A stretch of DNA of 64,000 bases from a virus (lineage: Duplodnaviria; Heunggongvirae; Uroviricota; Caudoviricetes), in the IMG/VR virus record IMGVR_UViG_2740892229_000011. One strand, written 5' to 3'. Made by a program: the position numbers and the translations under genes. The notes under the pieces are model-generated. The model was given only the letters and a program-made list of their open reading frames with translations. It had not been told where the DNA came from and did not search any database. Below are positions 7,924 to 40,440 of the stretch, one piece after another; position 1 is the first letter of the stretch, and each line of letters begins with the position of its first letter.

Positions 7924-8282
7924 TGTCCATGAAAATGGGTGACCTAGCAAAGCGCAAAGAGCCTGATGCACCGGCTAAGAACACAACTCCTTTGCGCCAA
8001 CCAGTCAGACCACAGGGACGCCCGACTCGTGGCAAAGAGAAAATTAAAAGCCGCACAATGTCACTGGAAGACGAATACTTCGAACTGCTGGAGATGATGA
8101 AGTTCATCCCTCGCTTCGAGAAGTTCACTCGTTCTGACGTGATTCGAGCAGCCATTTTCCATCTGGCAGAGAAGTCACCGCAGGAAATCGAGGACATCGT
8201 GAAGCTTAACGAGGCGATCACAGCTGCCGACGTTACGATGCGTACCGATGAAATTAAACGAGAGTTGATGAAGAAAGGTTGA
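7923..8282 (+). CDS. Small partition partner (ParB/ParG-like centromere-binding protein)
   Basis: 119 aa, start overlaps parA stop; basic, apparently disordered N-terminus; position is diagnostic rather than sequence. Confidence 0.5.
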   Translation: MSMKMGDLAKRKEPDAPAKNTTPLRQPVRPQGRPTRGKEKIKSRTMSLEDEYFELLEMMKFIPRFEKFTRSDVIRAAIFHLAEKSPQEIEDIVKLNEAITAADVTMRTDEIKRELMKKG

Positions 8283-8333
8283 TTATATTGGGCGTTTGTT
8301 ACGCCCAATATATGAATTAAAGGATTGATACTA

Positions 8334-14276: not shown

Positions 14277-16690
<2,414 letters not shown>

Positions 16691-20453: not shown

Positions 20454-20744
20454 ATGAGCAATTTAACTTCTTGGGACTGGTGGTTGGCCACCTATTTCTT
20501 AGCGGCCGGAGTCGCATTCGCCTTTTACGTAGGTCAGTTAGTCGTAAAACTGTTGCTGATAAAATTTGCTAGTCATAAACGTATCGATGATGGTCTGTGG
20601 CGTCTTGGCACTCTGGTGGAAACTCGCTACGGGCAACTTAAGGAGAACGAAACCATTACTATCCAAGCGAAACGGTTCACTGCCACCATCACAAGAACAC
20701 CTAGTCGTAGAGTGGCCTTGATCAAAAAAGTCACAACCGAATAA
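20454..20744 (+). CDS. Small membrane protein
   Basis: 96 aa; N-terminal TM 'WWLATYFLAAGVAFAFYVGQLVV'. Confidence 0.4.
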   Translation: MSNLTSWDWWLATYFLAAGVAFAFYVGQLVVKLLLIKFASHKRIDDGLWRLGTLVETRYGQLKENETITIQAKRFTATITRTPSRRVALIKKVTTE

Positions 20745-21522
20745 AAACACAATGATAAGTATTTACTTACTTATCTTTTATGTATAAGATGACTTTGTTT
20801 TCGTTGAGACGCGACTGTTTGAACTTAAATACAAGTGCAAACGAAGAAGTCTATCTGGCAGTAGCCTAATAAGCCAAACACCAGCGAGGTCAGTTTCCAG
20901 CCTCGTTACCGAAATGGGACACACTGAGCGAGTGTGATTGCAGAACGCAGGAGGGAACATTCATGTTCCCTCCGATGAAGTAACAGAATGGGCGGTTGGT
21001 ATATTTTCAACTCCATATGACTCCCGGATTCTTAGCCACTGACCGCCCATCCTGTTACGTCATTTTGTTCAATTATGTCGTTTATACTGGGTTAAAAAGC
21101 GGCGACGTAGCCCGGCTGGTATGGTTAGCCAGCACACAACGTTGAGGCCATTACATTTTTATCAATTCTAAGGTTCTATTCACAGAGATACCGGCGAGCG
21201 TTGATATGTAACATGTTGGGCAAACATTCAATCGGAGTAGTGGCCTCAACGTTGTGAAGACAGGATTGTTGTGTAGGTTTAACCACTGTTGCCATTGGTG
21301 CCTGTTTTCACAACAAATGATTCCATACATCACATTGTATAAATTACAAAGTAGGTGCTGTCCTCAGAAACATCATCTACTTAAAGATTTTGCCTTCTAC
21401 TATTGAGCGAAGTCGAAAGCGTCTGGCACTAACGAAAAGTGCAAGTAGCGGTGCGTTTCCTGGCAGAAACTAAACCGTCGCGATTGGCACTGTTGAGTAA
21501 TAAATACTGGCAGTGCTGAATT

Positions 21523-21597
21523 GATGGTGTAGCTCAGCGGTAGAGCAGTTGGCTGTTAACCAACTGGTCGGTGGTTCGAATCCACCCACCATCGCCA
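21523..21597 (+). tRNA. tRNA-Asn (anticodon GTT)
   Basis: Manual fold: acceptor gatggtg/caccatc, D-arm 'agctcagcggtagagc', anticodon arm gttgg-CTGTTAA-ccaac, T-arm ggtgg-ttcgaat-ccacc, 3' CCA encoded. Confidence 0.7.
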
Positions 21598-21602
21598 ATT
21601 TA

Positions 21603-21689
21603 GGGGAGTTAGTCCGTAGGGGCAGCGGGGTAGACTGTAAATCTACTGTCATTGCGACTCGGGTGGTTCGACTCCATCACTCCCCACCA
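21603..21689 (+). tRNA. tRNA-Tyr (anticodon GTA), long variable arm
   Basis: Acceptor ggggagt/actcccc, anticodon arm gtaga-CTGTAAA-tctac, long variable arm, T-loop 'ttcgact', CCA encoded. Confidence 0.6.
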
Positions 21690-21693
21690 AATT

Positions 21694-21769
21694 GCCGGTT
21701 TAGCTCAGTTGGTAGAGCGCCTGCCTTGTAAGCAGGATGTCAGCGGTTCGATCCCGTTAACCGGCACCA
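21694..21769 (+). tRNA. tRNA-Thr (anticodon TGT)
   Basis: Acceptor gccggtt/aaccggc, D-arm 'agctcagttggtagagc', anticodon arm cctgc-CTTGTAA-gcagg, T-loop 'ttcgatc', CCA encoded. Confidence 0.7.
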
Positions 21770-22089
21770 ACACAACAGGTAAGAGCATTGGGCGAATCGG
21801 CGATACTGACCCACAAGCCCGTAAATCGATAGAGTCAGACCAGTGCTCTTACCGTTGTGAGGAAGTGCAGCTCTTTGAAGCAACCAGAAGATAAGCATCT
21901 GGCTTCACAACACAACGATAAGATCATTACGGTTAATCGTCGTTCATGTGCACAATGACTGGTCGAAAGGTAGTGATCTTACCGTTGTGATGAATGCACA
22001 GGCTGATGTGCCGCAACTACAGTAGTGCGCGCTTTGCGGGGCTTGCTACAACCCTGTGTCGGAGTTCAGCACCGACCATCACAATAGCT

Positions 22090-22176
22090 GGAGAGTAGGG
22101 AGCATGGTGCTCAAGCGGTCTTGAAATCCGTCCCATTGTGCAAACGATGATGGTTCGATTCCATTACTCTCCGCCA
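22090..22176 (+). tRNA. Probable tRNA-Ser (anticodon TGA), long variable arm
   Basis: Acceptor ggagagt/actctcc, anticodon loop 'cttgaaa', T-arm gatgg-ttcgatt-ccatt, 3' gCCA; D-arm and anticodon stem pair imperfectly, so less certain. Confidence 0.45.
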
Positions 22177-22333
22177 GACACAGCGTTGAGCGGTTTGGCC
22201 TTTTAATCACCCAGATTAAGACTCCGCTAACATAAACCAGACCGCTCAACGCTGTGATAGACAATTACGGCAGACGTTCTTAACCATAGCTTGCTAACAT
22301 CCTAGCAACACTTTTTTTCAGCGCAAAATTCAA

Positions 22334-22354
22334 AGGGGCTTCGGCCCCTTTTTT
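22334..22354 (+). terminator. Rho-independent terminator after tRNA region
   Basis: 'aggggcttcggcccct' hairpin followed by 'tttttt'. Confidence 0.65.
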
Positions 22355-22397
22355 GCAACTGAAAGAGTCAAGTCTACGAACTTTGTAGGAAGAAATA

Positions 22398-22748
22398 ATG
22401 ACCAGCAAAGAGAACACACCACTAAAAGTCACCCCTGAACACATTGAACAACTCATTCAAAGTGAACATTATTTCACTGCATATGATGCCAGCCACGGGG
22501 ATAACTTCATCTCTGTTTACAATTCAAAAACAGATATCGACAAAGGTCATGAGTCGTTAAAACTCTTAACGTTCTGCGTTATGGTTCTCAAAAATGGATA
22601 TACCGTAACGGGAAAATCTGCGTGCGTAAGACCAGAAATCTTCAACTTTGATGTTGGTCGCGAGTACGCTCGAAAAGATGCTATCGATCAAATCTGGCCA
22701 CTGGAAGGCTATCTCCTGAAGCAAAAGTGGCATGAGGCAAAGCAATGA
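22398..22748 (+). CDS. Hypothetical protein
   Basis: 116-aa ORF; start overlaps glutaredoxin gene. Confidence 0.4.
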   Translation: MTSKENTPLKVTPEHIEQLIQSEHYFTAYDASHGDNFISVYNSKTDIDKGHESLKLLTFCVMVLKNGYTVTGKSACVRPEIFNFDVGREYARKDAIDQIWPLEGYLLKQKWHEAKQ

Positions 22749-22990
22749 CGATCACTATCTACGGACGAGATAACTGCTCATACTGCAAACGTGCAGTCGA
22801 GCTGGCGAAGCAACTAAAGGGACATGGCTACGGTGATTATGAGTACATCGACATCACCACTGCCGGTATCGACAAGGAAAAACTAAGTGAAATTGTTGGT
22901 AAACCGGTAGAGACTATCCCCAAGGTGCTGATCGATGGCCAGCCGATTGGCGGATACACAGAACTGGCTGCATACGTCAGCACCCTCTGA
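22745..22990 (+). CDS. Glutaredoxin / NrdH-like redoxin
   Basis: 'TIYGRDNCSYCKRAVELAK' with a CxxC active site near the N-terminus; 81 aa. Confidence 0.7.
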   Translation: MTITIYGRDNCSYCKRAVELAKQLKGHGYGDYEYIDITTAGIDKEKLSEIVGKPVETIPKVLIDGQPIGGYTELAAYVSTL

Positions 22991-23200
22991 TTTTAACGGC
23001 TCACAGGAGCCGTTTTTATTCCCACCAAACTCACTCCCATTTCCCTTAAAATTCAAAAAACAACGTCAAAATGATTCCATACCTACTATGTATGGAATCA
23101 TTGCTGAAAATGAGTTACTTTTACTCTTGATCCTATAAGAATCTATGCCTAATATACTGTTTACTTATACAGTGCATCGGCGTAACTCGGTGATTGTCAT

Positions 23201-24304
23201 ATGAAAAATAGCTTTGACAGAGCACGCGCTGCGGAGAACACCTCAAAAGAGGCGATAGAGTATCTCGAAAGAGCATCTCAAATGCAGGCCGTTATGATCT
23301 CCCAGGTCAGCAATGACATGAGATTCTCGGACGCATTCATGTTATTCACTCGCTTATCTCTGCTGATAACCAGACGTCGGCCAGAGATCGCTGTTCATTG
23401 TATTTTGATACATGTTTTGCCGCACATTGCCGATGTAAAAGTAAGTGACATTAATAGGTTCATGGTGAACCAACTGGTCAACCCACTAATACTGGATGGC
23501 AAAATTGTTATGGGCCGCCGCGTTTTCTCTCTGATGAAGCAGTTCCTTAGCTGGTGCGCCTTCCAGGGGATGATAGACGTGTCACCGTTAAACGATATGT
23601 CACTTAACAAAGTTGCCGGTGGCGCAAAGCCCACACCTCGCGAGCGGAAGCTGACCGACGCAGAGGTATGGGTGTTCTGGAATATATGGGACTACTTCAA
23701 TGTGTGTGCTGGTACAAAATGGGCGGCCAGGCTATGTCTTGTATCCGCAAGACGACCTGACGAAGTACTGCGGGCTAAAAAAAGTGAGTTCAATCTTAAG
23801 CGTGGGGTTTGGAATCAAGGCAAGAGGAACAAATCTGCCCGTGAGCATTCTCTGCCTTTAAGCTCATTAATGCGCACTTGTATTGAAGAGTTGTTCGAAT
23901 ATGGTAAAGACAGCCAGTGGCTCGTGCCTTCGAATAAAAAAATCGGGAAAGACCTTCCTATGTCTAAAGTGGCAATAGCCCAGGCATTACGTCGTATTCT
24001 GGAACGACCAGAACTGATGGAGCTTGAGCCATTTACACCCCGAGATTTGCGCCGTACTGCGCGTAGTTACTTCCCAGCATTAGGCATAAGCCAGGAGGTA
24101 TCACGTAAAATCATGAACCACAGTCTTGAGGGGATAGATCGGGTCTACGACCGGCACGATTATATGGACGAGATGCGAGACGCCTTAGAAAGTTTCTCGA
24201 CGTACATCGCATCAATCGTAGAGCAACCGGATTTAGACGAAATTGACCACAAATTTAAGGGAGATCGTCTATCAACAGAGCTTATTCGTGTAAATTTTTC
24301 ATAG
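23201..24304 (+). CDS. int: Tyrosine recombinase / phage integrase
   Basis: C-terminal catalytic region 'ARRPDEVLRAK...PFTPRDLRRTARSY...HSLEGIDRVYDRHDY' (R...H-x-x-R...Y pattern); about 1 kb downstream of the tRNA array. Confidence 0.75.
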   Translation: MKNSFDRARAAENTSKEAIEYLERASQMQAVMISQVSNDMRFSDAFMLFTRLSLLITRRRPEIAVHCILIHVLPHIADVKVSDINRFMVNQLVNPLILDGKIVMGRRVFSLMKQFLSWCAFQGMIDVSPLNDMSLNKVAGGAKPTPRERKLTDAEVWVFWNIWDYFNVCAGTKWAARLCLVSARRPDEVLRAKKSEFNLKRGVWNQGKRNKSAREHSLPLSSLMRTCIEELFEYGKDSQWLVPSNKKIGKDLPMSKVAIAQALRRILERPELMELEPFTPRDLRRTARSYFPALGISQEVSRKIMNHSLEGIDRVYDRHDYMDEMRDALESFSTYIASIVEQPDLDEIDHKFKGDRLSTELIRVNFS

Positions 24305-24685
24305 AGACTTTATGGCCTCAACAACCTTTTGTGATGCGCCTTTCTCTTTACCGAATCGCTCGTTATATGCAGCAAGAACCTGTTTTTCGTCCTCGTTAAG
24401 AGGAGCAGTGCCTTCTTTGTATAAAAATGCTGCGAGTTCGGGTTGGCGTTCTTCCAGCACCATCATCATAAGACGACTTGGCTCAATACCCAGTGCCAGC
24501 GCCAGCGGACGAACCTTATCGATAGGCAAAGGAATTTTGCCGCTTTTAATTAAAGAAAGGTTGTTGGCGTTTTTATACCCAATTGTTTTGGCTATCTGGG
24601 CCTGGCTCATAGGTGAGGATTCAATCAACCCTGCGATAAAAGCAGCGTAGCGACTTTCTATAAATTCAATCTTGTTATCAGACAT
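24299..24685 (-). CDS. HTH (XRE/CI-Cro-like) transcriptional repressor
   Basis: 128 aa; 'MSQAQIAKTIGYKNANNLSLIKSGKIPLPIDKVRPLALALGIEP' helix-turn-helix; convergent with int; the upstream region at about 24707-24727 carries the dispersed 'ggtaagtgcttacc' palindrome. Confidence 0.65.
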   Translation of the reverse strand: MSDNKIEFIESRYAAFIAGLIESSPMSQAQIAKTIGYKNANNLSLIKSGKIPLPIDKVRPLALALGIEPSRLMMMVLEERQPELAAFLYKEGTAPLNEDEKQVLAAYNERFGKEKGASQKVVEAIKSL

Positions 24686-24936
24686 GGTTACAACCTTTGC
24701 GCGTTCAATTCTCTCTGGTAAGTGCTTACCGATATTACATCAAAGGTTAGGGTTGTAAAGCTATTATCATTTTTTTCGATAGGCACTTAAAAGACCGGTT
24801 AAAGGCCATTGCACGGAGAAAAATTAGCCCAAAACAGGTAAGAAAATCAACTTGCATATGATATGAATGTATTCAGTATTGATACAAATTTTAGTAGTAT
24901 TCCTTACCATAGTATAAGTTAGAATGGATTGATTGA

Positions 24937-25149
24937 ATGAACACCACTATTTCCAGCCTAATCGCTCTTGAGATCGGACACGTACAGAAATTAGCTGATG
25001 AGTGTGTAGCTGACATCCTCACCGATCTACCGAATGAGCAGATTCAGGTTGGTGTGAATGACACAACTGGATTTATATTCGAACTTAACAACAAACGCTT
25101 CACGCTTCTCAATACCGGCTCCGGGTCTTTAGCCGTCAGAATCTGTTAA
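24937..25149 (+). CDS. Hypothetical small protein, divergent from repressor
   Basis: 70-aa ORF in Cro-like position opposite the HTH gene; no clear HTH seen. Confidence 0.3.
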   Translation: MNTTISSLIALEIGHVQKLADECVADILTDLPNEQIQVGVNDTTGFIFELNNKRFTLLNTGSGSLAVRIC

Positions 25150-25247
25150 CCCCTCTTCTCCCTGCGCGAATGGCTTAGTTCCCTGTTCGCGCAGTGCTAC
25201 ATTAAACACACTAGTAAATAATTTGTTTTCATAACAAAGGATTAGCC

Positions 25248-27356
25248 ATGTCTAAAAAACGTTCCATCAAAGAGGTTCAGGACTTCCGTGACAGTGTAAA
25301 ACGAGTAGTCGCTCTCCTTTCAGGTAAAAACATCCCTGTTGCAGAACGAGGGGACGACGCTTATGTATGCTATAACGATGATGGAGAGCCAATTCTCGTA
25401 AACATCCCATCAATCCCGGATAACGCAACACCGGCATTGATGAATGCTGTGCGCGGATTTCTCGATCATGAGGTTGCTCACATTTTGTTTACCGATATTC
25501 GTGTGTCCAACAAAATGAGAGAAAAAGGACGCGTTCCTTCCTGGTCGCTATGGAATGCCTTAGAAGACGTGTTCATCGAGCGAAAAATGGGTCAGGTCTT
25601 TAACGGAACAAGACGTAATCTGATGGCAACTCAGCGCCTTATAATCGAAAAAGTCTTTAAACCAAAGGCTTCAGAGGCTATTGCTTATTGTGGCAAAGAT
25701 CAGCGCGCGCTTTTTCTAAACTTCTTTCTCTGTCCGGTTGTAAGAGCCTGGGATGGCCAAGCACCGTTCGTAGATTTCATGGATGAATATTGGCCTGTCA
25801 TTGAGAAACCAATTTCATTATTAAAAGAACATGGTATCGATGTGGCCGTGCGTAACATGTCTTGCACCGAGGATTGTGTAAAGGTGGCTGCGACCATAGC
25901 TAAGATCCTCAAAGACACTGAAAGTGAAAGCAAAGGTAAGGAGTCAGCTCCGGGAAAAACTTCCGATCCTTCAGACGCTGAACAGACGGATGCCTCTGGA
26001 GAAAACAATGAAGATAACGAAGATCATGAGACACCCTCAGCGTTAGATAATCACAAATCTATCAAATCAGAATCACACAGTAAGCACAAACATGATAATA
26101 ACGACGGTGATGATTCAGATAATTCTGAATCATCAGAAACAATATTCGATGATACAGAAAATGATAAAGAGGTATCAGATTCTGATGCTTCTGATAACGC
26201 GGTGTCAGAATCATTTACCGCTGACCACGAAAAAAGAAAAACGACAGAAGACGGCTCTTCAGATATCCCAACTCCGTCAAAAATGAGTCTGGAAGAGGCT
26301 TTAGAGGAGCTGGATAGCATAGAAGATGAAGTCGGAGGCATGACAGAAGATGCTCTATCCGAAACGATTAAAAGCGAGTTAACAGAAAGCTCGAAAAGCG
26401 AATACAGGCCATACAATCGCTCATACGACTTCATCGGCTCGATTGATCAGGCAGAAGCCCATATCAAACGGCTTATTAAAACATTCTCCGATATTGATTT
26501 AGGAGGATATCCAATCAGCCGCTATCGCATCGTTCCTGAAGGCAACCAGCTCTTCGACAAATATATTGAAAAGCATCTTTCGTCAGGTGTTTCGTCGACG
26601 CTGGCAAAAGACCTGGAGCGAGCAATAGCAAGCAGAAACAGAGTTCAGTTTATACCGGGCCAGCGTCGGGGGCGCATTCATGGTTCTAGTATCTACAGAT
26701 TAGCAATGAATGATGATCGCGTGTTTCGTAAAAAAGAAGAATCTAAAGCCGTTAACGCCTGTGTTCAACAAGTGATTGATTTATCAGGTTCAATGAGTGG
26801 TATAACGATACAATTGGCTCTTGCAAGTGCATATACCATCGCCGATGCCCTTGATCGAATAAATGTTCCCAACATTATCACCGGCTTCACTACATTTGGT
26901 AGTCATATGGCGGCAGGAGAACTTAAGGCTGTCAAGTATGAGTTCTCTCGCTTTGAATCTTTAATGCTACCTATCATCAAAAATTGGAATGAAAAGGTAA
27001 ATTCTCGCGAAGTTCGCTCACGTATGGGGTGCGTAGGCTACACATTCCCACTTCTTAATAACGTGGATGGTGAAAGCATAGCCAGCCTTGCATCGTTATT
27101 TTCCGGTCGCATGGAGGACAGGAAGATCATGCTTGTTCTGAGTGATGGCGCGCCGTGGGCTGTTGGGAGAGGTTTTGACGCTCATTTGCGTTCGGTTGCG
27201 AAGCAAATTGAAACGCAGACTGACATTGATTTGATGGCAATTGGCATCATGACTGACGCACCGGAGAGATTTTACTCAAATCATGCCCTGGTAACGAGCG
27301 TTGATAGTCTTGGTTCATCTGTAGTTACTGAACTATCTCGTATCATTTTGAAGTGA
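25248..27356 (+). CDS. CobT-like protein with C-terminal von Willebrand A (MIDAS) domain and long acidic linker
   Basis: 702 aa; MIDAS motif 'VIDLSGSMSG'; highly acidic Ser/Asp/Glu tract in the middle; paired with the downstream AAA ATPase. Confidence 0.6.
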   Translation: MSKKRSIKEVQDFRDSVKRVVALLSGKNIPVAERGDDAYVCYNDDGEPILVNIPSIPDNATPALMNAVRGFLDHEVAHILFTDIRVSNKMREKGRVPSWSLWNALEDVFIERKMGQVFNGTRRNLMATQRLIIEKVFKPKASEAIAYCGKDQRALFLNFFLCPVVRAWDGQAPFVDFMDEYWPVIEKPISLLKEHGIDVAVRNMSCTEDCVKVAATIAKILKDTESESKGKESAPGKTSDPSDAEQTDASGENNEDNEDHETPSALDNHKSIKSESHSKHKHDNNDGDDSDNSESSETIFDDTENDKEVSDSDASDNAVSESFTADHEKRKTTEDGSSDIPTPSKMSLEEALEELDSIEDEVGGMTEDALSETIKSELTESSKSEYRPYNRSYDFIGSIDQAEAHIKRLIKTFSDIDLGGYPISRYRIVPEGNQLFDKYIEKHLSSGVSSTLAKDLERAIASRNRVQFIPGQRRGRIHGSSIYRLAMNDDRVFRKKEESKAVNACVQQVIDLSGSMSGITIQLALASAYTIADALDRINVPNIITGFTTFGSHMAAGELKAVKYEFSRFESLMLPIIKNWNEKVNSREVRSRMGCVGYTFPLLNNVDGESIASLASLFSGRMEDRKIMLVLSDGAPWAVGRGFDAHLRSVAKQIETQTDIDLMAIGIMTDAPERFYSNHALVTSVDSLGSSVVTELSRIILK

Positions 27357-27451
27357 ATAAAACAGCCTTAATGATAAGTAACCACTTACGATAGTTAATG
27401 GTATATTTATATAAGAAGTTGAACGCTCATTAGAGAACAAAGGAAAAACGC

Positions 27452-28687
27452 ATGACGACTACTGCACTGCAAAATGAAAAAAATCATTCTGATTACCTTG
27501 TTTGCAAGTGGTGCGGCAAATCATTTCACTATTTTAAGTCCCATGTAGCCAATGGTAATTGCGAGGGCATTCCTGAGTCAGTAAAAGATGCCGATCCTGA
27601 CACCGTACTGAAAATGTACACAACGCAGTTTCCAGATGAGCCAACGCTATCGAAAAAGGCACTTGATGCAATTCAAGCTAAACGTGCCGAGCAAAAAAGC
27701 GAAATGGCCAAATCTTCTGGCTTGACCAGTAGCCCTGGCTACACAGGCACAGTTGAGTACAAGACAGATCTGGTCGCAGCTCACGAACTGCTAAACGTAA
27801 CGGTGGAAGAACTCGGAACAAAACGTGGGACGCCGCTCATGGTTAGCGTCAACGTCAATACGCCGTATCCAGAGTTCGTTCCAGAAGTGAAGAAGGGCTA
27901 CGTATATGGCGACTTCGAACTGATCAAAGATATTTTCATGATGCTTGAACTTGGCATACCTGGCTATTTGTGGGGTCATGCAGGAACAGGCAAATCGTCA
28001 TTGCCTACACAGCTATGTGCTTTGCTCAATCGTCCGTTGATCCGTGCCCAACATACAGCATCAATGGAAGAGGCACATGTTACGGGGCAAATTCTGGCGC
28101 GTGATGGCTCTACGTATTTCGAGCCTGGCTTGCTTGCGCTCGCAATGAAGCATGGCTGGGTTTACCTCGCGGATGAATACGACTTTGCGTTTCCACAGAT
28201 TCTTGGCGTGTATCAGCCAGTGCTGGAAGGTGAAGCGTTGGTCATCAAAGAGGCGACTCCAGAATGGCGTCGCATTACTCCGCATGAACGGTTTGCTTTC
28301 ATTGGCACTGGCAACACGAACGGATCTGGTGATGAAACCGGCTTGTACCAGGGTACAAACATCCAGAACGCCGCGAACTTTTCGCGTTTTGGCATCGTTT
28401 CGAATGTGAAATACATGAGCAAAGAGGCAGAGATCAACATGTTGATAAATGCCGGTATCGTGGGTGAATACGCAGAAAAGATGGTTAAGTTTGCCGGTAT
28501 CGTTCGCGATGGATACGAAGAACACCTTATCAGTCAGCCAATTGGCCCTCGTGAACTTTTGTTGTCGGCCAAGATTGGAATGATGCGAGGCGACTTTGTG
28601 ACAGGTATTGAGCGTTCTTTCATTAACAAACTCCCTTCAGCTTCTGCACAAGCGGCTCGTGAAGTTGTTCAAAAAATATTTGGTTGA
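27452..28687 (+). CDS. CobS-like / MoxR-type AAA+ ATPase with N-terminal zinc ribbon
   Basis: 'CKWCGKSFHYFKSHVANGNC' zinc ribbon; Walker A 'GHAGTGKSS'; Walker B 'VYLADEYDF'. Confidence 0.65.
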   Translation: MTTTALQNEKNHSDYLVCKWCGKSFHYFKSHVANGNCEGIPESVKDADPDTVLKMYTTQFPDEPTLSKKALDAIQAKRAEQKSEMAKSSGLTSSPGYTGTVEYKTDLVAAHELLNVTVEELGTKRGTPLMVSVNVNTPYPEFVPEVKKGYVYGDFELIKDIFMMLELGIPGYLWGHAGTGKSSLPTQLCALLNRPLIRAQHTASMEEAHVTGQILARDGSTYFEPGLLALAMKHGWVYLADEYDFAFPQILGVYQPVLEGEALVIKEATPEWRRITPHERFAFIGTGNTNGSGDETGLYQGTNIQNAANFSRFGIVSNVKYMSKEAEINMLINAGIVGEYAEKMVKFAGIVRDGYEEHLISQPIGPRELLLSAKIGMMRGDFVTGIERSFINKLPSASAQAAREVVQKIFG

Positions 28688-28867
28688 TCGTGCGTAAAGG
28701 ATGTTTCGGCTCTCTTATCGCTGCTTCTGAAACTGGTAAGGCTTGTCTGGTGTGTCCAGACAAGCCTGATTGTCACCAATCAGCAAAAGAAGTTGCGATT
28801 TCGATGCATGGGAAGTTCGTAGGCTTCCCAAATGACAAAATCAAAAAAACCAGAAAGGTAAAAACAC

Positions 28868-31800
28868 ATGAAGGCACTGATGGTTCGAACTGACTTCTCA
28901 CTTGGGGAGTCGGCTTTAAAAGCAGAAAACGCGGTGAAGATTGCCAGAGAAGCTGGCTACACCGCTGTAATTTCAGCAGATAGCATGAATATTGCGAGTG
29001 TTATTCCACTACAACGTGCCGCTGGTGACGACATGGCGGTTATTTGTGGTGTGAAACTAAATATCGTTGATGATCCCACATACGAGCACCGGGCTAAACT
29101 TGCTAAAGAATCTAAGGGATGTATGGAATCATTAGAGCGAGGACGTAACTACTCGTTTACCGCTCTAATTAAAAATGAGAAAGGATATCGCGACATCTGC
29201 GAACTAATGACGGCGGCCAACACACGAGAACAGTTCTACTTTGTACCGCGTCTCTCGCTCGAACAGTTGGTTTCTACATATGCCAAAGGCAACATCATCC
29301 TGCTTACTTCCGACATCGGTAGCGTGTTCCAACGCAACGATTTTGCAAAAATCATAAGCACACTGATTACAGCGGGTGGAAAAGACAACTTCTATAGTGT
29401 GGTTTATCCGCACCCTACCCCATTCTACGACCAGATTAACGTCCGGGCGATGAAAGTCGCCAGCGCATTGAAAATAGAGCCAGTGGCGTTCTATCCCGCT
29501 TATTACGAATCGATCGACGATGCAGACATTAAAGACATTGCGCACATGGTTACGAACAACATCAAAATCGACCAGCCGCATCGTCTGCGTATCCCCCACC
29601 AGCGAGATAACGCCGTCAATGGTCGCCGCCATCTCCTTGAGGCGCTTAAAGCCTTCTCCGTTCGCATGGATGTGCCGGTAACAGCTGCAATGGCCTCAAC
29701 AACGCAGGATACCATTATCGATGCCTGCACATGGCGCTGGCATGAATTGCCGCCAGCACTGCCAAAGATGGCAGACGACGAGCCTGCAACGCTTATGAAA
29801 CTGGCTGTTGCAGGGCTGCGTAAACGTCTTACCACAAAAGAGTTTGGCTACACACCACCTGCTTCTGAGAACAGGGTTTATGTTGAGCGGCTAAAGTACG
29901 AAATGGACACGCTGACTCGCCTGGGATTTTGTGGTTACTTCCTGATGGTACGCGATCTGATGAATCACAGCCGTGAAACTGGCATTCCTGTCGGGCCTGG
30001 TCGTGGTTCCTCCGCTGGCTCTTTGGTGGCATGGTGCATAGGCATAACCAACGTCGACCCTATCCGTCACGGTCTTCTGTTTGAACGTTTCATCAACCCT
30101 GAGCGTCTCGACTTGCCAGATGCGGATTTGGACTTCAGCCAGGCACGTCGCCATGAGGTGATCGAGTATCTGAATGAACGATACGGCGAAGATTACGTTG
30201 CGGGTATTCCGAACTTCACATATCTGGGCGCAGCCTCTGCACTACGTGACACCGCTCGTATTTATGGTGTGGAGTCCGCAGATATGGCGGTATCAAAAGA
30301 GCTGAGGAACGTCGAGGATGATAGCCTTCCATTGGAAGAGCTGCGCGAACAACTGGCAAGTCTCGACAAATACGCGACAAAATACCCTGATGCATTCAAT
30401 GCTGCCTGCAAGTTACAAAGTCTTATGCGTGGCTTTGGTAGACATGCGGCAGGGATGATCGTAGCAGGTGTTCCTCTGACAGAACGTACACCGGTTGAAC
30501 GCCGTGGTGACGCGCGTTGTATCGCATTTGACAAGCGTTACTGCGAGGCTATGGGCCTAATTAAGCTGGACGTACTTGGTCTGGCAACTCTCGATTTGCT
30601 CGATAGTGCAAAACGCTACATAAAAGAGAACACAGGTGAAGATATCAATCTTGATGCCATTTCTCTTGAAGATCGCAAGGTGCTGGATGGTTTTGCTGCT
30701 GGGTACACTCAAGGTGTTTTCCAGCTTGAATCAGGCCCAATGCGCAAGCTGCTTAAAGATTTAGGTGGTGGAATTGAGCCAATGAGCTTTAAAACGGTCG
30801 TTGCTACGACTGCGCTCTTCCGGCCGGGGCCAATTCAGTCAGGCATGTTGGATGATTATGTTTCTGTCGCCAAAGGCTTTATGACGCCGGAATCATTACA
30901 CCCCGTTCTTGATGAACTTACCGCAGAAACAAATGGCGTGATTCTCTATCAGGAACAGACGATGAACGCGACTCGATTGCTTGCCGGCTTCACAATGGCT
31001 GAAGCTGACGGTGTTCGTAAAGCGATCGGCAAAAAAGACATGGAGAAAATGAAGAGCATGGGTGAGAAGTTCATCGTTCAGGCTCAAGCTGGCTGGATCG
31101 ACGTTGAGCTGGAAGATGGCACTACACAGCGCATTCACCGTGCGGAACATTTTAAATGCGAAGACGGAACTCTGAAAACTGTCGAAGAGGCACTTGAGTT
31201 CGGTGCAAAACTACCTATAAACGCAGTACGCGTTACAGCGTCACATCCAGGGCTATCAGAGATGAAAGCGAAGGAGATCTGGACCGCATTCGAAAAGAAT
31301 GGTGCCTACCAGTTCAACAAATCACACTCTGTTGCTTACTCCTTAATCAGTTATCAATCTATGTGGTTGAAAACTCATTATCCCGCAGAGTTTTTCGCTG
31401 CTGCTCTCACTATTCTTGGCGAAGATAAACACCAGGGGCTGGTTAAAGATGCGCTGACCTATGGTATTCGCGTATTGCCACCAGACGTTAACGTGTCATC
31501 TAACCGAATCGAGATCCGCACGCTTGAAGATGGCAGCCAGGTGCTGTATGCGCCCTTCTCTGCTGTGAAGGGGTGTTCTGAGAATGGCTGCCAGGCCATC
31601 ATGAGAGCGCGAGAAAAGGTTGGCGGCAAATTCGAGTCACTTGCGCAATTCGAAGAAGCTGTCGAGAAACGTGCCTGTAATAGTCGAGTGCGCGAATCGC
31701 TGCAAAAAGTAGGGGCGTTTGCATCCATCGAGCCAGGTAGTCTGCCAGCAACTGATCCAGAGCGCCTCCGCGACCAGGCTGAATTGATGGGAAACCTTGT

Positions 31801-32386
31801 CATAGATGCAGTTAAAGCCTCACGTCCGTTTGAGATGAACCCCAAACGTTCGGCTGAGATTAACGTGCTCATGACACGGATGGCGGCTGAAATGGGCTTA
31901 GGTGATGAACTAATCCGCCCCAGCATTGGTATTAAGCCGAAAATCATGATCATTCTGGACAATGCAAACGGCAATGATGCTCGAACCGGTTACTTCATGG
32001 AGAACGGATACGACGATTTTAAGGCCAAGCTGTTGACGGCTGGAGATTTGCGCATGGGCGATCTGTATGTCACAGGCGTTTGCAAAAAGGTGAAAGACAA
32101 AGAAAAGGACTACACCAAAGACGAGATCGGCCAGTTCACCGACTTTATGCGTGAAGAGATCAATCTGGTACGTCCGACCTATGTGCTGACGTGTGGCAGT
32201 CGGGCAACGGCATTGTTTAACAACAAAAACAAGCCATCCGATTTAGTCGGTAGGAAGGAGTATCTTCCAGACCTTGACGTTACAGTCTTTTACGGGTTTA
32301 ACCCCAACATTCTTTACTTCAGACCTGAAGAGGGAGAACGACTAGAAGCGATATTAGCCGACGTAGCAGAAACTATTAAGTCGTGA
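28868..32386 (+). CDS. DNA polymerase III alpha-like (DnaE-family) replicative polymerase with N-terminal PHP domain
   Basis: 1172 aa; PHP-like N-terminus 'MVRTDFSLGESALKAENAVKIAREAGYTAV'; palm region 'GLIKLDVLGLATLDLL' characteristic of the C-family polymerase core. Confidence 0.75.
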   Translation: MKALMVRTDFSLGESALKAENAVKIAREAGYTAVISADSMNIASVIPLQRAAGDDMAVICGVKLNIVDDPTYEHRAKLAKESKGCMESLERGRNYSFTALIKNEKGYRDICELMTAANTREQFYFVPRLSLEQLVSTYAKGNIILLTSDIGSVFQRNDFAKIISTLITAGGKDNFYSVVYPHPTPFYDQINVRAMKVASALKIEPVAFYPAYYESIDDADIKDIAHMVTNNIKIDQPHRLRIPHQRDNAVNGRRHLLEALKAFSVRMDVPVTAAMASTTQDTIIDACTWRWHELPPALPKMADDEPATLMKLAVAGLRKRLTTKEFGYTPPASENRVYVERLKYEMDTLTRLGFCGYFLMVRDLMNHSRETGIPVGPGRGSSAGSLVAWCIGITNVDPIRHGLLFERFINPERLDLPDADLDFSQARRHEVIEYLNERYGEDYVAGIPNFTYLGAASALRDTARIYGVESADMAVSKELRNVEDDSLPLEELREQLASLDKYATKYPDAFNAACKLQSLMRGFGRHAAGMIVAGVPLTERTPVERRGDARCIAFDKRYCEAMGLIKLDVLGLATLDLLDSAKRYIKENTGEDINLDAISLEDRKVLDGFAAGYTQGVFQLESGPMRKLLKDLGGGIEPMSFKTVVATTALFRPGPIQSGMLDDYVSVAKGFMTPESLHPVLDELTAETNGVILYQEQTMNATRLLAGFTMAEADGVRKAIGKKDMEKMKSMGEKFIVQAQAGWIDVELEDGTTQRIHRAEHFKCEDGTLKTVEEALEFGAKLPINAVRVTASHPGLSEMKAKEIWTAFEKNGAYQFNKSHSVAYSLISYQSMWLKTHYPAEFFAAALTILGEDKHQGLVKDALTYGIRVLPPDVNVSSNRIEIRTLEDGSQVLYAPFSAVKGCSENGCQAIMRAREKVGGKFESLAQFEEAVEKRACNSRVRESLQKVGAFASIEPGSLPATDPERLRDQAELMGNLVIDAVKASRPFEMNPKRSAEINVLMTRMAAEMGLGDELIRPSIGIKPKIMIILDNANGNDARTGYFMENGYDDFKAKLLTAGDLRMGDLYVTGVCKKVKDKEKDYTKDEIGQFTDFMREEINLVRPTYVLTCGSRATALFNNKNKPSDLVGRKEYLPDLDVTVFYGFNPNILYFRPEEGERLEAILADVAETIKS

Positions 32387-32511
32387 TCCAATAAACATGG
32401 CCTCTATGGCCATGTTTTCTCTTATCCCCTCATATCCCCTATCCTCGAACTCCTTGCCTTATCATCACAATGATATAATCAATATAAGATGATAAGTAAA
32501 AAGGAAAGCAC

Positions 32512-32943
32512 ATGATCACCGATATTTACGAGAAAATAATGTCTGATCTCGAGTTTGACCGAGACAATCTGGAGGAAGTCTGGCGTAGACAACCCCGCCT
32601 TTTAATGGAGTATGGCTCAAAACTCGCTCATGCAGAAAGAAGTGTCGCAGAGGCAAAACTTAACCTTGAAGCTGTTGAAGCAAAGCTATACGACACAGAG
32701 CGTAAGAACTTGAGTATGAACGGCATTAAGTTCAACGAGTCTGTACTGGACGCTAAGGTTAAAACAAACCCACAGTATCTATCTAAACGTCAGAAGTTGG
32801 ATGACGCACGGCACATAGCAGACATATACAAACATGCTGTCGCCGCCTTTTCGCATCGCCGAGACATGATCGTTCAGGCGTCGAAGATGGCCATTGTTGA
32901 ATTAGAGCGATTAGGCTCCGAACGCTTTATTACTCCCCGTTGA
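32512..32943 (+). CDS. Hypothetical coiled-coil protein
   Basis: 143-aa ORF, helical/charged composition. Confidence 0.4.
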   Translation: MITDIYEKIMSDLEFDRDNLEEVWRRQPRLLMEYGSKLAHAERSVAEAKLNLEAVEAKLYDTERKNLSMNGIKFNESVLDAKVKTNPQYLSKRQKLDDARHIADIYKHAVAAFSHRRDMIVQASKMAIVELERLGSERFITPR

Positions 32944-33060
32944 TTTTTGATAGATAATAAGTAAGTACTGATCTATCATTTAACAGCTCGAAAGAGCCAC
33001 GAATGAACGAAAGCCCAACGCGCATAGCGCCATCGGCCAAATCACAACAAGGAGAAACAC

Positions 33061-35362: not shown

Positions 35363-37702
35363 ATGGCAAAAGGAAAATCCGCACTGGCACTTGCTCTGAA
35401 AAAGAAAATCGGTAGCAACGACGAAATTCAGAAAGTAACTCATTGGATTGATACAGGCTTTCCACCGTTAAACAAAGCTATTTCTGGTCGTTACGATGGC
35501 GGCTTCCCATGTGGTCGTATCGTCGAAGTATTCGGTCCTCCAAGTGCAGGGAAATGTGTTACCGCAGACACCATGCTGCTGACGGAGCGTGGAATGGTAA
35601 CAGTGAAAGAGTTGTTTGAGATTGAAGGGTACAAAGCGACATGCACTACTCGCGATGTAGAGCATAACGTTGGACTCATCAATGAAAATGGCGTGATAGA
35701 GAAGACCTCACACCTGACATGGAACAACCGTCGCAAATTCAAGCGTATTAAGCTGGCATCAGGCGGTTATATCGAGGCTACGTTCCGTCACCCAATCCGT
35801 GTGGTTGACGACTTAGGTAATGTCGTCTGGCGACATGCTGAAAAAATCAGTGTAGGCGACACGATTCCTTCAATGGTTGGCACACATCAATTCGGCGATC
35901 AGCACCTGGATGCCAATATCGCAAAACTGATGGGCTATTTAATTGCTGACGGATACGTGGCCTCTGAAAATTCAGTGAATTTTTCTAACACAGATCCTTT
36001 CATCAAGGATGAGTACTACCGCCTCATTTCGCTGGTATCAGACAAGATGCCAGTTACGAGAAAACATAACGGCTCGGAAGACCATGTGCTGTTTAGCAAA
36101 GAGGTGCGTTCGCTGCTTTTTAAAGAATATGGTCTGGAGTATGAGAAAGCTGCTGGCAAGCAGGTTCCGTTGAGTGTGCGTCGCGCCAATAGCGAGGCTC
36201 AAATTGCATTCCTTCGCGGCTACTTTGAGCTGGAATGCCACGTCAATGATGGTCGCTGCATTGAGGTTGTGAGCGCGAGTGGGCTGCTGCTACAGCAAAT
36301 TCGCCTCATGCTCCTGAATCTGGGGATTACGTCAACTATCTCTGAAAAACACGTCGCGGGTTATGAAAATACATATTACCGGCTGTCATTCAGTGGCTCT
36401 AATTACGACCTTTTTCTGTCAACGATTGGTTTCGAATCTCCGGCACGTTTATCAGTGGCAACCAAACGGGACATTGGTTTTGACCGCACTTACTCAGGCT
36501 ATGTTCCGCACATCAGCGGCTTAGTGAAATCACTCTACGAGTCGCTCACCAAGACCACCCGTGAAGACTACGCTCTGGTAGACCACGTTATTGGCCGCGG
36601 CGATCGTGTCGGAATAGACAAACTGCGAGAAATCTATGTCTCCTTCATTGGCAGAAAGAATCGTTTTAACGAGCATCTGTTTGCACAACTGGCAGCGGTA
36701 ATTGGCTCTAACTTGTTCTACGACGAAGTCGTGGCTATTGAGGAAGGTGAAGCACCAACGTTCGACGTAGCGATGCCGGAAACACACTCTTTCTGGTCTA
36801 ACGGGATTATCAGCCACAACACATTCCTTGCAACAGCAGCGATGATCTCCGCTCAAAAACAAGATGGTCTGGCGGTATTCCTCGATCATGAAAACAGTTT
36901 TGACGTTGGCCTGGCTGTAGCCAATGGCCTGAACGCAGATGAGGATGACGGTCAGTGGGTATACAAGCAGCCAGATACCTTCGAAGACTCTGTAGAGTTG
37001 ATCGGCACAATACTTAAATTGGTTCGTGATGAAGAGCTTATCCCCGAATCAGCACCTATCTGTATCGTGGCTGACTCACTTGCGTCTATGGTTCCGAACT
37101 CCAAAGCCGAGAAGTTCGAAAAGATGGCTGAAGGCACTGCCAAAGACAAAGATCAGCTAAACATGAACGACAATACGGCACTGGCTCGTGCGACAAGTGC
37201 GAACTTCCCTACTCTGGCTTTGTGGGCACGCAAATACAACGCCTGCATCATCTTCTTGAATCAGGTTCGCACAAAAATCGGTGTAATGTTTGGCGACCCT
37301 ACTACGTCGCCAGGTGGAGATTCACCGAAGTTCTACGCTTCTGTACGTATCCGTCTTGGTGCATCGGTGATGAAGGATGGTAAAGAGAAGATCGGCCAGG
37401 ACGTAGGCGCAGAATGCATCAAAAACAAAGTTGCACCACCGTATGGCAAATGCACCTGGAAATTCTACTTCGATCCTACTCGTGGCCTCGACGTTATCGA
37501 ATCGCTCGTCGAGTACATGCTGGAAGAAGGATACCTGCCAAAGAACGCCAGCGGGCGAGTTGAAATTGGTGACAAGAAATACACCAAATCGCAGATCGTC
37601 GAGATGTATCGGGAGAAGCCACTGGCTGAAATCATTGCGGCTTTGCAGGCAATCGACGACCGAAGAGCAAAAGACAACCCCACCGAGTCAGTAGAAGAGT
37701 AA
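35363..37702 (+). CDS. recA: RecA-family recombinase interrupted by an in-frame intein
   Basis: N-extein ends with P-loop 'GPPSAGK'; C-extein contains RecA signatures 'IIFLNQVRTKIGVMFGDPTTSPGGDSPKFYASVRIRLG'; exteins total about 357 aa, the size of a RecA. Confidence 0.8.
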   Translation: MAKGKSALALALKKKIGSNDEIQKVTHWIDTGFPPLNKAISGRYDGGFPCGRIVEVFGPPSAGKCVTADTMLLTERGMVTVKELFEIEGYKATCTTRDVEHNVGLINENGVIEKTSHLTWNNRRKFKRIKLASGGYIEATFRHPIRVVDDLGNVVWRHAEKISVGDTIPSMVGTHQFGDQHLDANIAKLMGYLIADGYVASENSVNFSNTDPFIKDEYYRLISLVSDKMPVTRKHNGSEDHVLFSKEVRSLLFKEYGLEYEKAAGKQVPLSVRRANSEAQIAFLRGYFELECHVNDGRCIEVVSASGLLLQQIRLMLLNLGITSTISEKHVAGYENTYYRLSFSGSNYDLFLSTIGFESPARLSVATKRDIGFDRTYSGYVPHISGLVKSLYESLTKTTREDYALVDHVIGRGDRVGIDKLREIYVSFIGRKNRFNEHLFAQLAAVIGSNLFYDEVVAIEEGEAPTFDVAMPETHSFWSNGIISHNTFLATAAMISAQKQDGLAVFLDHENSFDVGLAVANGLNADEDDGQWVYKQPDTFEDSVELIGTILKLVRDEELIPESAPICIVADSLASMVPNSKAEKFEKMAEGTAKDKDQLNMNDNTALARATSANFPTLALWARKYNACIIFLNQVRTKIGVMFGDPTTSPGGDSPKFYASVRIRLGASVMKDGKEKIGQDVGAECIKNKVAPPYGKCTWKFYFDPTRGLDVIESLVEYMLEEGYLPKNASGRVEIGDKKYTKSQIVEMYREKPLAEIIAALQAIDDRRAKDNPTESVEE
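35555..36820 (+). other. Intein (about 422 aa) with LAGLIDADG homing-endonuclease domain, inserted in the RecA P-loop
   Basis: Begins with Cys ('K|CVTADTMLL'), ends 'IISHN' followed by Thr (+1); LAGLIDADG-type blocks 'LMGYLIADGYV' and 'FLRGYFELECHV'. Confidence 0.7.
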
Positions 37703-39716: not shown

Positions 39717-39896
39717 ATGAAGATTTTTATTGAATACTTGTTACTCATCGTTTCAATAGCTTTTGTCATCGACTGCATTTTCACCGGTGTCATTCGTAAA
39801 GTCTTTTCCCCGGTGAACGACGTAGTCATAAACGCTTTGGCTATCGTGCTCGTATTTAATTCAGCATTTGATGTAATCAAAGAGGTGGCAGCATGA
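39717..39896 (+). CDS. Small hydrophobic membrane protein (59 aa)
   Basis: ORF below the 60-aa track threshold found by hand: 'MKIFIEYLLLIVSIAFVIDCIFTGVIRKVF...'; its stop overlaps the next start. Confidence 0.3.
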   Translation: MKIFIEYLLLIVSIAFVIDCIFTGVIRKVFSPVNDVVINALAIVLVFNSAFDVIKEVAA

Positions 39897-40228
39897 AGGC
39901 CATCCCATTCGCGCTGTTGTTCCTTTCTTCGATCGTTGTGGCCGACACCACTGTTTATCAGTGTGAAATGTCTGTAGCCGACGTTAAGAATGGCGCTCTT
40001 ACCGACGTCATAAAAGCACCATATGGAGCGATGGTCGTAGACAGCGGCGACCAGTTCTATGTTGTGCGTGACGATCGAGTGTTGTCATCCCCATATCTCA
40101 CAAATCGTAATGGCAAATTAACCGGCGTCGGAGAAGACCACTTCGTATACAACAAATACAAGGGCTTCTATGGTGTTCACGCTTCTCAGCAAAGCTACCT
40201 TTTCGATGACTGCAAGGAGGTTGGATAA
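39893..40228 (+). CDS. Secreted small protein
   Basis: Signal peptide 'MKAIPFALLFLSSIVVA'; 111 aa. Confidence 0.4.
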   Translation: MKAIPFALLFLSSIVVADTTVYQCEMSVADVKNGALTDVIKAPYGAMVVDSGDQFYVVRDDRVLSSPYLTNRNGKLTGVGEDHFVYNKYKGFYGVHASQQSYLFDDCKEVG

Positions 40229-40440
40229 TGGCATTAACACTGGCAGGTCTGGAAATCGAGAAAACAAGCGGCTACTGGCGTGCTAAGGGTTTCAAGCAGC
40301 CTGGCATTCTTGAGCGTCTGGAACGTGAAGATGGGTATATCGTCCACCAGCGGCGTGAATGGCGTATGTACGATCCAGAAACAGGAAAACTGACTACAAA
40401 AGCCGGAACACTTTGGGGTCTGTTAAAGAAAATACACTAA
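40228..40440 (+). CDS. Hypothetical small protein
   Basis: 70-aa ORF overlapping previous stop. Confidence 0.35.
   Translation: MALTLAGLEIEKTSGYWRAKGFKQPGILERLEREDGYIVHQRREWRMYDPETGKLTTKAGTLWGLLKKIH

Follow-up and report, generated by a model that had tools for sequence, protein, structure and literature searches.

The closest structurally solved relatives of the gene pair treated here are CobS and CobT, the cobaltochelatase subunits of Brucella melitensis. CobS is a hexameric AAA+ ring, and CobT consists of an M48C-peptidase-like N-domain, a disordered linker of ~90 residues, and a von Willebrand A (vWA) domain, with a "shaft" (Q373-R413) before the vWA domain that enters the ring and with CobN docking on the side of MIDAS, the metal ion-dependent adhesion site (bioRxiv 10.64898/2026.07.21.739949). 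Two studies of 2021 treat viral counterparts: one described, in phages, a MoxR-vWA pair whose vWA protein has a metallopeptidase at its N-terminus (Iyer et al., PMC7824862), and the other the spread of a "cobST cluster" in tailed viruses (Liu et al., PMC8651126). The viruses covered are T4-like jumbo phages, cyanophages, and haloviruses. For the pair of T4-like jumbo phages, virion assembly was the proposed role, by analogy with the MoxR-vWA system that Acidianus two-tailed virus needs for tail development (PMC7824862), and the boosting of cobalamin synthesis by viral cobST has been proposed for tailed viruses generally (PMC8651126). Here, we analyze a pair of this kind at positions 25248-28687 of IMG/VR record IMGVR_UViG_2740892229_000011 (the window hereafter, meaning the whole stretch of 64,000 nucleotides), which is an SSU5/pHCM2-type phage-plasmid of E. 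coli. We are confident that this pair is a CobST-like remodeling motor and not a chelatase, and we describe a peptidase motif in its adaptor, a zinc finger on its ATPase, and a conserved association with a replicative polymerase gene.

Results

Domain organization of the pair

A 3.6-kb stretch holding the pair is 100% identical to E. coli plasmid NZ_CP027358.1, 98.9% identical to phage Cyrano, and ~75% identical to Salmonella phage SSU5. Among 5,426 complete E. coli genomes, 244 carry the pair, in every case on a plasmid, and CobT_C-like genes were found on 1,021 PLSDB plasmids, many of them from Klebsiella, Acinetobacter, Yersinia, and Salmonella. Both open reading frames (ORFs) lie on the + strand, where a first-pass annotation of the same DNA had placed them: a CobT-related vWA adaptor of 702 residues (25248-27356; T-like protein hereafter), and a CobS-related MoxR-class AAA+ ATPase of 411 residues (27452-28687; S-like protein hereafter). 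That annotation had read a MoxR-AAA/vWA architecture from two motifs, GHAGTGKSS and DLSGSMSG, which we locate at S-like residues 175-183 and T-like residues 511-518, respectively, and domain profile searches agree with its reading. Pfam returned the CobT N-domain at T-like residues 9-294 (E = 5e-27), the CobT_C vWA domain at residues 492-701 (E = 1e-82), and AAA_5 at S-like residues 173-293 (E = 2e-15). Both proteins have full-length PHROG matches, the T-like protein to phrog_1576 (E = 3e-299) and the S-like protein to phrog_249 ("porphyrin biosynthesis", E = 2.5e-105). RefSeq names the products "cobaltochelatase CobT-related protein" and "AAA family ATPase", respectively. In the Cyrano deposit (L001 12001-15440), the two genes are labeled "dimethylbenzimidazole phosphoribosyltransferase" and "cobalamin synthetase"; these labels confuse the pair with the unrelated enzymes called CobT and CobS in Salmonella nomenclature.

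The best PDB matches of the two proteins are the solved structures of B. melitensis CobT (9uka_G: E = 9e-17 with the single sequence, 2e-59 with the family profile) and CobS (9ujv_A: E = 1e-25 over S-like residues 142-411). The S-like protein is 30% identical to Sinorhizobium meliloti CobS over the same residues, and alignments to these two CobS proteins delimit its AAA+ module (27875-28684, + strand). Compared with CobS, the catalytic motifs of the module are intact: Walker A (G175-S182), Walker B (D241-E242), sensor-1 (N288), Arg finger (R312), and sensor-2 (R367), the roles of the aligned CobS residues being known (bioRxiv 10.64898/2026.07.21.739949). The region of the helix-2 insert and pre-sensor-1 hairpin, both of which CobS has, aligns without large gaps, as judged from the sequence alignment alone. 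A clamp-loader role was considered and rejected because the ATPase falls in the MoxR/CobS clade and not with RFC/DnaX.

The T-like protein has the parts of a CobT adaptor in the same order. Its N-domain (residues 1-225; 25248-25922) is predicted to have the CobT_N/M48-like zincin fold, with a helix, a three-stranded sheet, and nine helices. It is followed by an acidic, Ser/Asp/Glu-rich disordered linker recognized from composition and family comparison (residues 222-380; ~25911-26387), by a segment that phmmer aligns to the shaft of 9uka_G (Q373-R413; T-like residues 463-503; 26634-26756) and in which G471, G475, and F493 are conserved in the family alignment, and by the vWA domain with its MIDAS (26721-27350), all on the + strand. 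The five MIDAS positions of B. melitensis CobT (D422, S424, S426, N518, and D546) correspond to T-like D511, S513, S515, N605, and D633, which are invariant or nearly so across 66 relatives. The pair has, in sum, the domain plan of a cobaltochelatase motor, i.e., an AAA+ ATPase and an adaptor with N-domain, acidic linker, shaft, and MIDAS-bearing vWA domain, and it shares with CobS/CobT (B. melitensis 9uj*/9uk*) the positions of the AAA+ motifs and the adjacency of the two genes.

The first-pass annotation had also pointed to an extreme and unusual acidic tract. The tract is there, 158 residues with 31% D/E, 25% S/T, and a net charge of -35, but the linkers of 66 relatives have a median of 182 residues and 39% D/E, and that of the genuine CobT of S. 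meliloti has 85 residues and 46% D/E. An acidic linker is therefore common to the whole CobT family, genuine CobT included, and is not unusual, so we rejected it as a special feature of this pair. A search for tandem DNA repeats in the tract returned none.

Evidence bearing on a chelatase role

The homology to CobS and CobT, which extends to the MIDAS, the shaft, and the linker, is clear and speaks for an auxiliary cobaltochelatase (EC 6.6.1.2), as do hosts of some related phages, e.g., Rhizobium, which have CobN and the aerobic cobalamin pathway. The scores against the NCBIfam equivalog models speak against it, being about a tenth of the cut-offs (T-like protein against TIGR01651 for CobT: 71.8 bits, cut-off 759; S-like protein against TIGR01650 for CobS: 84.2 bits, cut-off 558.6). 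The CobS_N domain (PF12556), found in S. meliloti CobS with E = 2e-17, is absent from the S-like protein. Neither the window nor the other 46 kb of the 100%-identical plasmid yielded a CobN-sized or other chelatase gene, the host chromosome not having been searched. Cobalamin genes are likewise missing from the window and from the rest of this closest complete plasmid, which extends the earlier remark that none lie near the pair. E. coli requires heterologous cobN, cobS, and cobT together with the entire aerobic pathway to produce B12, and the B12 route of Salmonella is anaerobic (PMC6249242). The argument that a virus needs B12 for a class II ribonucleotide reductase (RNR) (PMC8651126) does not apply here because the element's own RNR is of class Ia, which is B12-independent. 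The gene order is also reversed, cobS-cobT in cells and T followed by S in the phage. Because of the low equivalog scores, the absence of CobS_N and CobN, the lack of an aerobic pathway in E. coli, the class Ia RNR, and the reversed order, we do not regard the pair as a chelatase, and it almost certainly does not make vitamin B12.

A zincin signature retained in the viral clade

The N-domain of the T-like protein contains an HExxH zincin motif, HEVAH, at residues 74-78 (25467-25481, + strand), which the first-pass annotation had overlooked. We searched 1.84 billion representative sequences with the N-domain (residues 1-225) and obtained 1,127 relatives; HExxH is present in 149 of the best 150 of these, the remaining one being a fragment. 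In 128 full-length relatives (33-74% identity), the motif is invariant, and the invariant positions are G70, D73, H74, E75, H78, E106, D107, E111, G120, and R166. Among 357 full-length T-like proteins retrieved, 355 have HExxH and the other two are each short of one histidine. Among distant phages, CRP-810, ICP2, and Gordonia Anamika have the motif too. A candidate third zinc ligand lies in the segment N103-x2-E106-D107-x3-E111 (25554-25580, + strand), a "glutamate helix" suggested by its conservation (N103 is nearly invariant in T-like relatives) and by its position on the next long helix.

Genuine CobT proteins differ at this site. Four of them lack HExxH. DHEVAH of the window aligns with GDSMALR in S. 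meliloti CobT and with ADAFALR in Cereibacter CobT, so that S/A-M/F-A-L-R stands in place of the motif; both retain the downstream E...E. Pandoraea CobT, compared by eye, has GDAAALQ at the position. An AlphaFold2 (AF2) model of T-like residues 1-225 (predicted local distance difference test, pLDDT, 90.8; predicted template modeling score, pTM, 0.87) has the topology reported for CobT_N, with H74, E75, and H78 on helix 62-81 and E106 and E111 on helix 99-117, two consecutive long helices. Foldseek with this model returned no significant match in PDB, Wss1 appearing only as a nonsignificant row; against viral models (BFVD), it found the fold in the N-termini of many viral vWA proteins. We regard the zincin domain of the T-like protein as probably active.

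A Ros/MucR-type zinc finger on the ATPase

About 140 residues precede the AAA+ module of the S-like protein. They include, at residues 15-67 (27494-27652, + strand), the motif C18-x2-C21-x9-H31-x5-C37, which becomes C-x2-C-x9-H-x4-H in distant relatives (30% identity), and then a segment (Y56..FP61..S67) that relatives conserve as Y..FP..P.LS. The pattern C-x2-C-x9-H-x4-5-[HC] is present in 79 of the 83 S-like ORFs fetched. Since this spacing resembles that of Ros/MucR, we compared the finger with six annotated MucR genes fetched from plasmids. The hhalign probability was 90.1% (E = 1.6e-6, 24 columns), and 93.9% (E = 1.5e-7, 35 columns, ligands in register) for the subset without the enterobacterial insertion; the score is 45.5, whereas none of 400 column shuffles exceeded 21 and the reversed template scored 13.7. 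The C-x2-C-x9-H-x4-H spacing and the following E-x-Y-x2-K-W/F segment of Ros/MucR proteins align, whereas the finger of the window differs in being the N-terminal module of an AAA+ protein and not a stand-alone regulator, and in having Cys as fourth ligand at a spacing of 5. This profile comparison favors a C2H2-like zinc finger of Ros/MucR type over the Cys-rich ribbon noticed at first pass; the Cys-rich motif stands, but its ligands are two Cys, one His, and one Cys or His, not the four Cys of a zinc ribbon. Pfam found no domain in S-like residues 1-140, and a large protein search with the N-terminal profile returned five fragments only and no new architecture.

The operon and its conservation

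The pair lies inside a large module of replication, recombination, and nucleotide-metabolism genes. The rightward operon starts with a small ORF of 70 residues (24937-25149, + strand; phrog_2627, E = 9e-41), which is kept ahead of the T-like gene in the enterobacterial clade and which jackhmmer traces to a group at 39% identity. Divergent from it is a helix-turn-helix (HTH) repressor-like gene of XRE type (24299-24685, - strand), which has a weak Pfam HTH_19 match and is called "putative repressor" in Cyrano; prophage relatives have an integrase and an HTH gene at this position. Between the 70-residue ORF and the T-like start, at 25162-25194, is a 9-bp inverted repeat (CTGCGCGAA / TTCGCGCAG, 15-nt loop) with no T-run after it, which could be a regulatory hairpin.

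Downstream, a protein of 69 residues with four cysteines (Cys4 protein hereafter; 28684-28893, + strand; phrog_6337) overlaps both the S-like stop codon (ATGA) and the start of the gene for a DnaE-type replicative polymerase (28868-32386, + strand; phrog_405), which belongs to the same transcription unit by conserved synteny. The pair had been noted to sit just upstream of such a polymerase, and the DnaE start at 28868 bears this out. C7, C21, C24, and C30 of the Cys4 protein are invariant, and it has no Pfam domain. Longer homologs (180-237 residues), identified by jackhmmer and alignment, are encoded between the S-like and DnaE genes in each of the distant relatives examined, and the Cys4 protein may be an additional part of the module or an accessory factor of DnaE. 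In some nonenterobacterial relatives, a sigma-70 region 2-like gene stands between the S-like and Cys4-family genes (L004:3889-4614, L005:13323-14057, L006:13370-14026, L089:12819-13454, and L104:9734-10378); the E. coli element is without it and has the short Cys4 protein only. The sigma-like gene and its Cys4-family neighbor may form a pair of sigma/anti-sigma type. A terminator-like hairpin with a T-run follows dnaE (32393-32417, + strand); it was seen by pattern scan only and is the only + strand site of its kind in 24200-33000, and promoter and terminator pattern scans gave counts no higher than those in shuffles.

The order T-like, S-like, Cys4, and DnaE persists down to ~30% identity across phages of five host groups. 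At 30-38% identity, it was seen in betaproteobacterial prophages, in the Pseudomonas phages nickie and hairong (Nickievirus), in two Rhizobium phages (RHEph10 and RHph_X66), and in BUCTxx99, a phage of Stenotrophomonas. In ICP2, an unrelated podovirus, the pair lies just upstream of a primase, a helicase, and a different polymerase, and its neighbors in CRP-810 and Gordonia phages are small early ORFs. Judged from gene order, what these phages share is that the pair is expressed early, usually from the front of the replication genes. A third variety was seen in Cupriavidus sp. EM10 (L092 3942-6633), where a CobS-like gene is followed by a CobT_C-like protein of 471 residues without the N-domain.

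Upstream of the pair, the window encodes a DnaB-type helicase, a primase, a ligase, a tRNA cluster, a glutaredoxin, and an integrase. Between primase and ligase is an insertion sequence (14343-16144, - strand) with an rve-type transposase (15122-16144) and a second ORF, absent in Cyrano. The four tRNAs (21523-22176, + strand) are Asn-GTT, Tyr-GTA, Thr-TGT, and Ser-TGA. A segment of low GC content (8001-10028; 33% compared with ~46% elsewhere) holds a gene for a KAP-family P-loop NTPase (8325-10028) that is probably an acquired accessory or defense-type gene. Further downstream are genes for a UvsY-like protein, gp32, a 5'-3' exonuclease, RecA, Rep, Mre11/Rad50, NrdAB, and ThyA; the RecA homolog (35363-37702, + strand) is split by an intein with a LAGLIDADG homing-endonuclease domain. 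Plasmid NZ_CP027358.1 (L095) carries host-type metG and apbC as well as dfrA51, a trimethoprim-resistance dihydrofolate reductase (20593-23884 and 39880-40356). PADLOC found no match to a defense system, its sole row being a marginal DrmE (E = 0.0014).

Discussion

The viral MoxR-vWA-peptidase family is well populated, was named, and was described in 2021, and the pair of the window is therefore a further member of this class: it shares the two-gene architecture, the peptidase motif, and the full-length matches to PHROG 1576 and 249. It differs from the pairs in the two earlier studies in being a core early gene set of SSU5-type phage-plasmids that is linked to DnaE, and in its Ros/MucR-type finger, which is unmentioned there. 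We did not find four points in the literature searched: HExxH is invariant in the viral clade but lost in genuine CobT; the ATPase carries a finger of Ros/MucR type; T, S, Cys4, and DnaE form a tight operon in five host groups; and two virulent lineages have lost the catalytic histidines. Compared with CobS/CobT, the phage pair is ~30% identical, has no CobN or pathway beside it, keeps HExxH intact, carries a finger in place of CobS_N, has the order T-S, and sits in a replication operon.

With moderate confidence, we read the pair as an early-expressed, probably DNA-tethered AAA+/vWA machine for protein remodeling and possibly for proteolysis. By homology with the solved CobST, the S-like protein would assemble as a hexamer, and the T-like protein would dock through its N-domain and push the shaft before its vWA domain into the S-like ring; the MIDAS face of the vWA domain would hold a client protein, to be remodeled through ATP hydrolysis. 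The Ros/MucR-type finger, on a flexible linker, would probably tether the motor to DNA. Since the gluzincin signature of the T-like N-domain is complete, the T-like protein may cleave the client or itself. The two genes are the first large genes of a putatively early operon, beside a repressor gene and together with DnaE, so that the most likely client would be a DNA-associated protein at the start of lytic or plasmid replication. More tentatively, the pair may act on a DNA-bound protein in the service of replication or of the lytic switch. Of the chaperone or remodeling role suggested at first pass, for replication or virion assembly, remodeling is the best general reading, and virion assembly receives no support from gene position.

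Several observations count against parts of this reading. Both HExxH histidines are lost in Pseudomonas Nickievirus (SEISK) and in Stenotrophomonas phage BUCTxx99 (REVST), and the genes stay in place; the T-like genes concerned are those of nickie (L087:8974-11058, SEISK), hairong (L105:5971-8049, SEIAK), and BUCTxx99 (L103:5992-7977, REVST). Proteolysis therefore cannot be a universally required activity. For the finger, Pfam ROS_MUCR gave no match at E values up to 1, and an AF2 model of S-like residues 1-140 from four sequences was unreliable (pLDDT 43), with a hint of two short strands and of helices around the ligands. Ros/MucR fingers bind DNA, and DNA binding by the S-like finger is deduced solely from this behavior. 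The DnaE neighborhood is an association and no proof of a role in replication. Finally, the literature searched for functional work on CobS/CobT of phages, phage-plasmids, and pHCM2 offered annotations and proposals only, in keeping with the first-pass view that the function is not established.

Among the alternatives, the one that survives best, although we consider it unlikely, is a chaperone that inserts a metal center or cofactor into a phage metalloenzyme, with the PHP domain of DnaE and the di-iron class Ia RNR as candidate clients. Insertion of a metal center or cofactor is the role of most characterized MoxR-vWA pairs (NorQ/NorD, CoxD/CoxE, CbbQ/CbbO, and the Mg and Co chelatases; PMC7159879), and NorQ, NorD, and CbbQ are among the PDB matches of the pair, albeit weak ones. 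That the pair is strictly linked, in five host groups, to a DnaE with a PHP domain fits this role, and so do the NrdAB, glutaredoxin, and Cys4 protein that the element encodes. However, ICP2, CRP-810, and Gordonia phages have the pair without an adjoining DnaE-type polymerase, and the role leaves both the conserved HExxH and the zinc finger unexplained. NorQ/NorD, CbbQ/CbbO, RavA/ViaA, CoxD/CoxE, and BchI/BchD share with the phage pair an ATPase ring and a MIDAS adaptor that holds the client, but their adaptors have no zincin domain, their ATPases have no zinc finger, and their clients are known metalloenzymes.

A little less likely in our judgment is a device for the lysis-lysogeny decision or host takeover, in which the DNA-tethered motor would extract a DNA-bound repressor or host silencer, such as the element's own HTH repressor or H-NS-like proteins, and the zincin would cut it, leading to lytic commitment; this overlaps with the specific part of the remodeling reading. 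Peptidases of this kind have a precedent in the ImmA/IrrE-type anti-repressor enzymes, which cut repressors. The pair heads an operon divergent from a repressor gene, an integrase/HTH or RepC/CopG/XRE switch occupies the same place in distant relatives, and the ATPase carries a finger of Ros/MucR type. The arrangement is of virulent type in both lineages that lost HExxH, which have neither a repressor nor an integrase nor a RepC switch upstream of the pair, whereas relatives with such a switch upstream keep the motif. The link between the loss and the absent switch is suggestive, but it is built on two events only, and the virulent ICP2 retains HECYH. The pair is itself within the repressed operon and could hence reinforce induction but not start it, the retention of the pair by virulent phages means that the switch cannot be its sole role, and the T-like protein has no Pfam sequence match to the M78/ImmA family.

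A chaperone and processing protease for virion assembly is improbable. The domain architecture is the same as in the related phage proteins for which this was proposed (PMC7824862), but the pair sits in an early/replication operon beside the repressor, amid helicase, primase, ligase, DnaE, gp32, and RecA genes, tens of kilobases from where the plasmid encodes capsid, terminase, and tail proteins, and an ATPase with a DNA-binding-type finger is ill-suited to a structural-protein client. Last, an auxiliary chelatase, in which viral CobS and CobT would work with the CobN of the host, or with an Mg-chelatase H subunit resembling CobN, to raise cobalamin synthesis during infection, is very improbable, since to the evidence given above are added a viral clade that retains the peptidase motif missing in genuine CobT and a DNA-binding-type finger that replaces CobS_N.

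Within the remodeling reading, we also put forward a more specific and, at present, speculative version, to which we give as little credence as to the switch device: the pair, possibly with the Cys4 protein, might be a DNA-tethered protein-extraction and proteolysis machine that commits the phage-plasmid to lytic replication. The finger would set the AAA+ ring on DNA, and the MIDAS would seize a repressor or nucleoid silencer bound to DNA, which the motor would strip off the DNA and the zincin domain would cut, so clearing the template; virulent relatives without a repressor would have let the peptidase site decay. The resemblance to SPRTN/Wss1 with p97/Cdc48, in which proteins bound to DNA are the targets of a zincin peptidase working with an AAA+ motor and a DNA-binding element, is one of logic only, since there is no detectable homology and p97 belongs to a different AAA+ clade. 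If this version were true, the pair would be a bacterial-virus counterpart of the SPRTN/p97 logic, built of chelatase parts.

The pair belongs to the core early genes of a family of phage-plasmids and phages that is very common. Annotations routinely assign it to "porphyrin/cobalamin biosynthesis", and viromics counts it among the auxiliary metabolic genes. If it is a replication-linked remodeling or proteolytic machine, a widespread annotation would be corrected, and phages of E. coli K-12 such as PhiR41_1 and Cyrano would provide a genetically tractable system for studying how MoxR-vWA pairs choose their clients.

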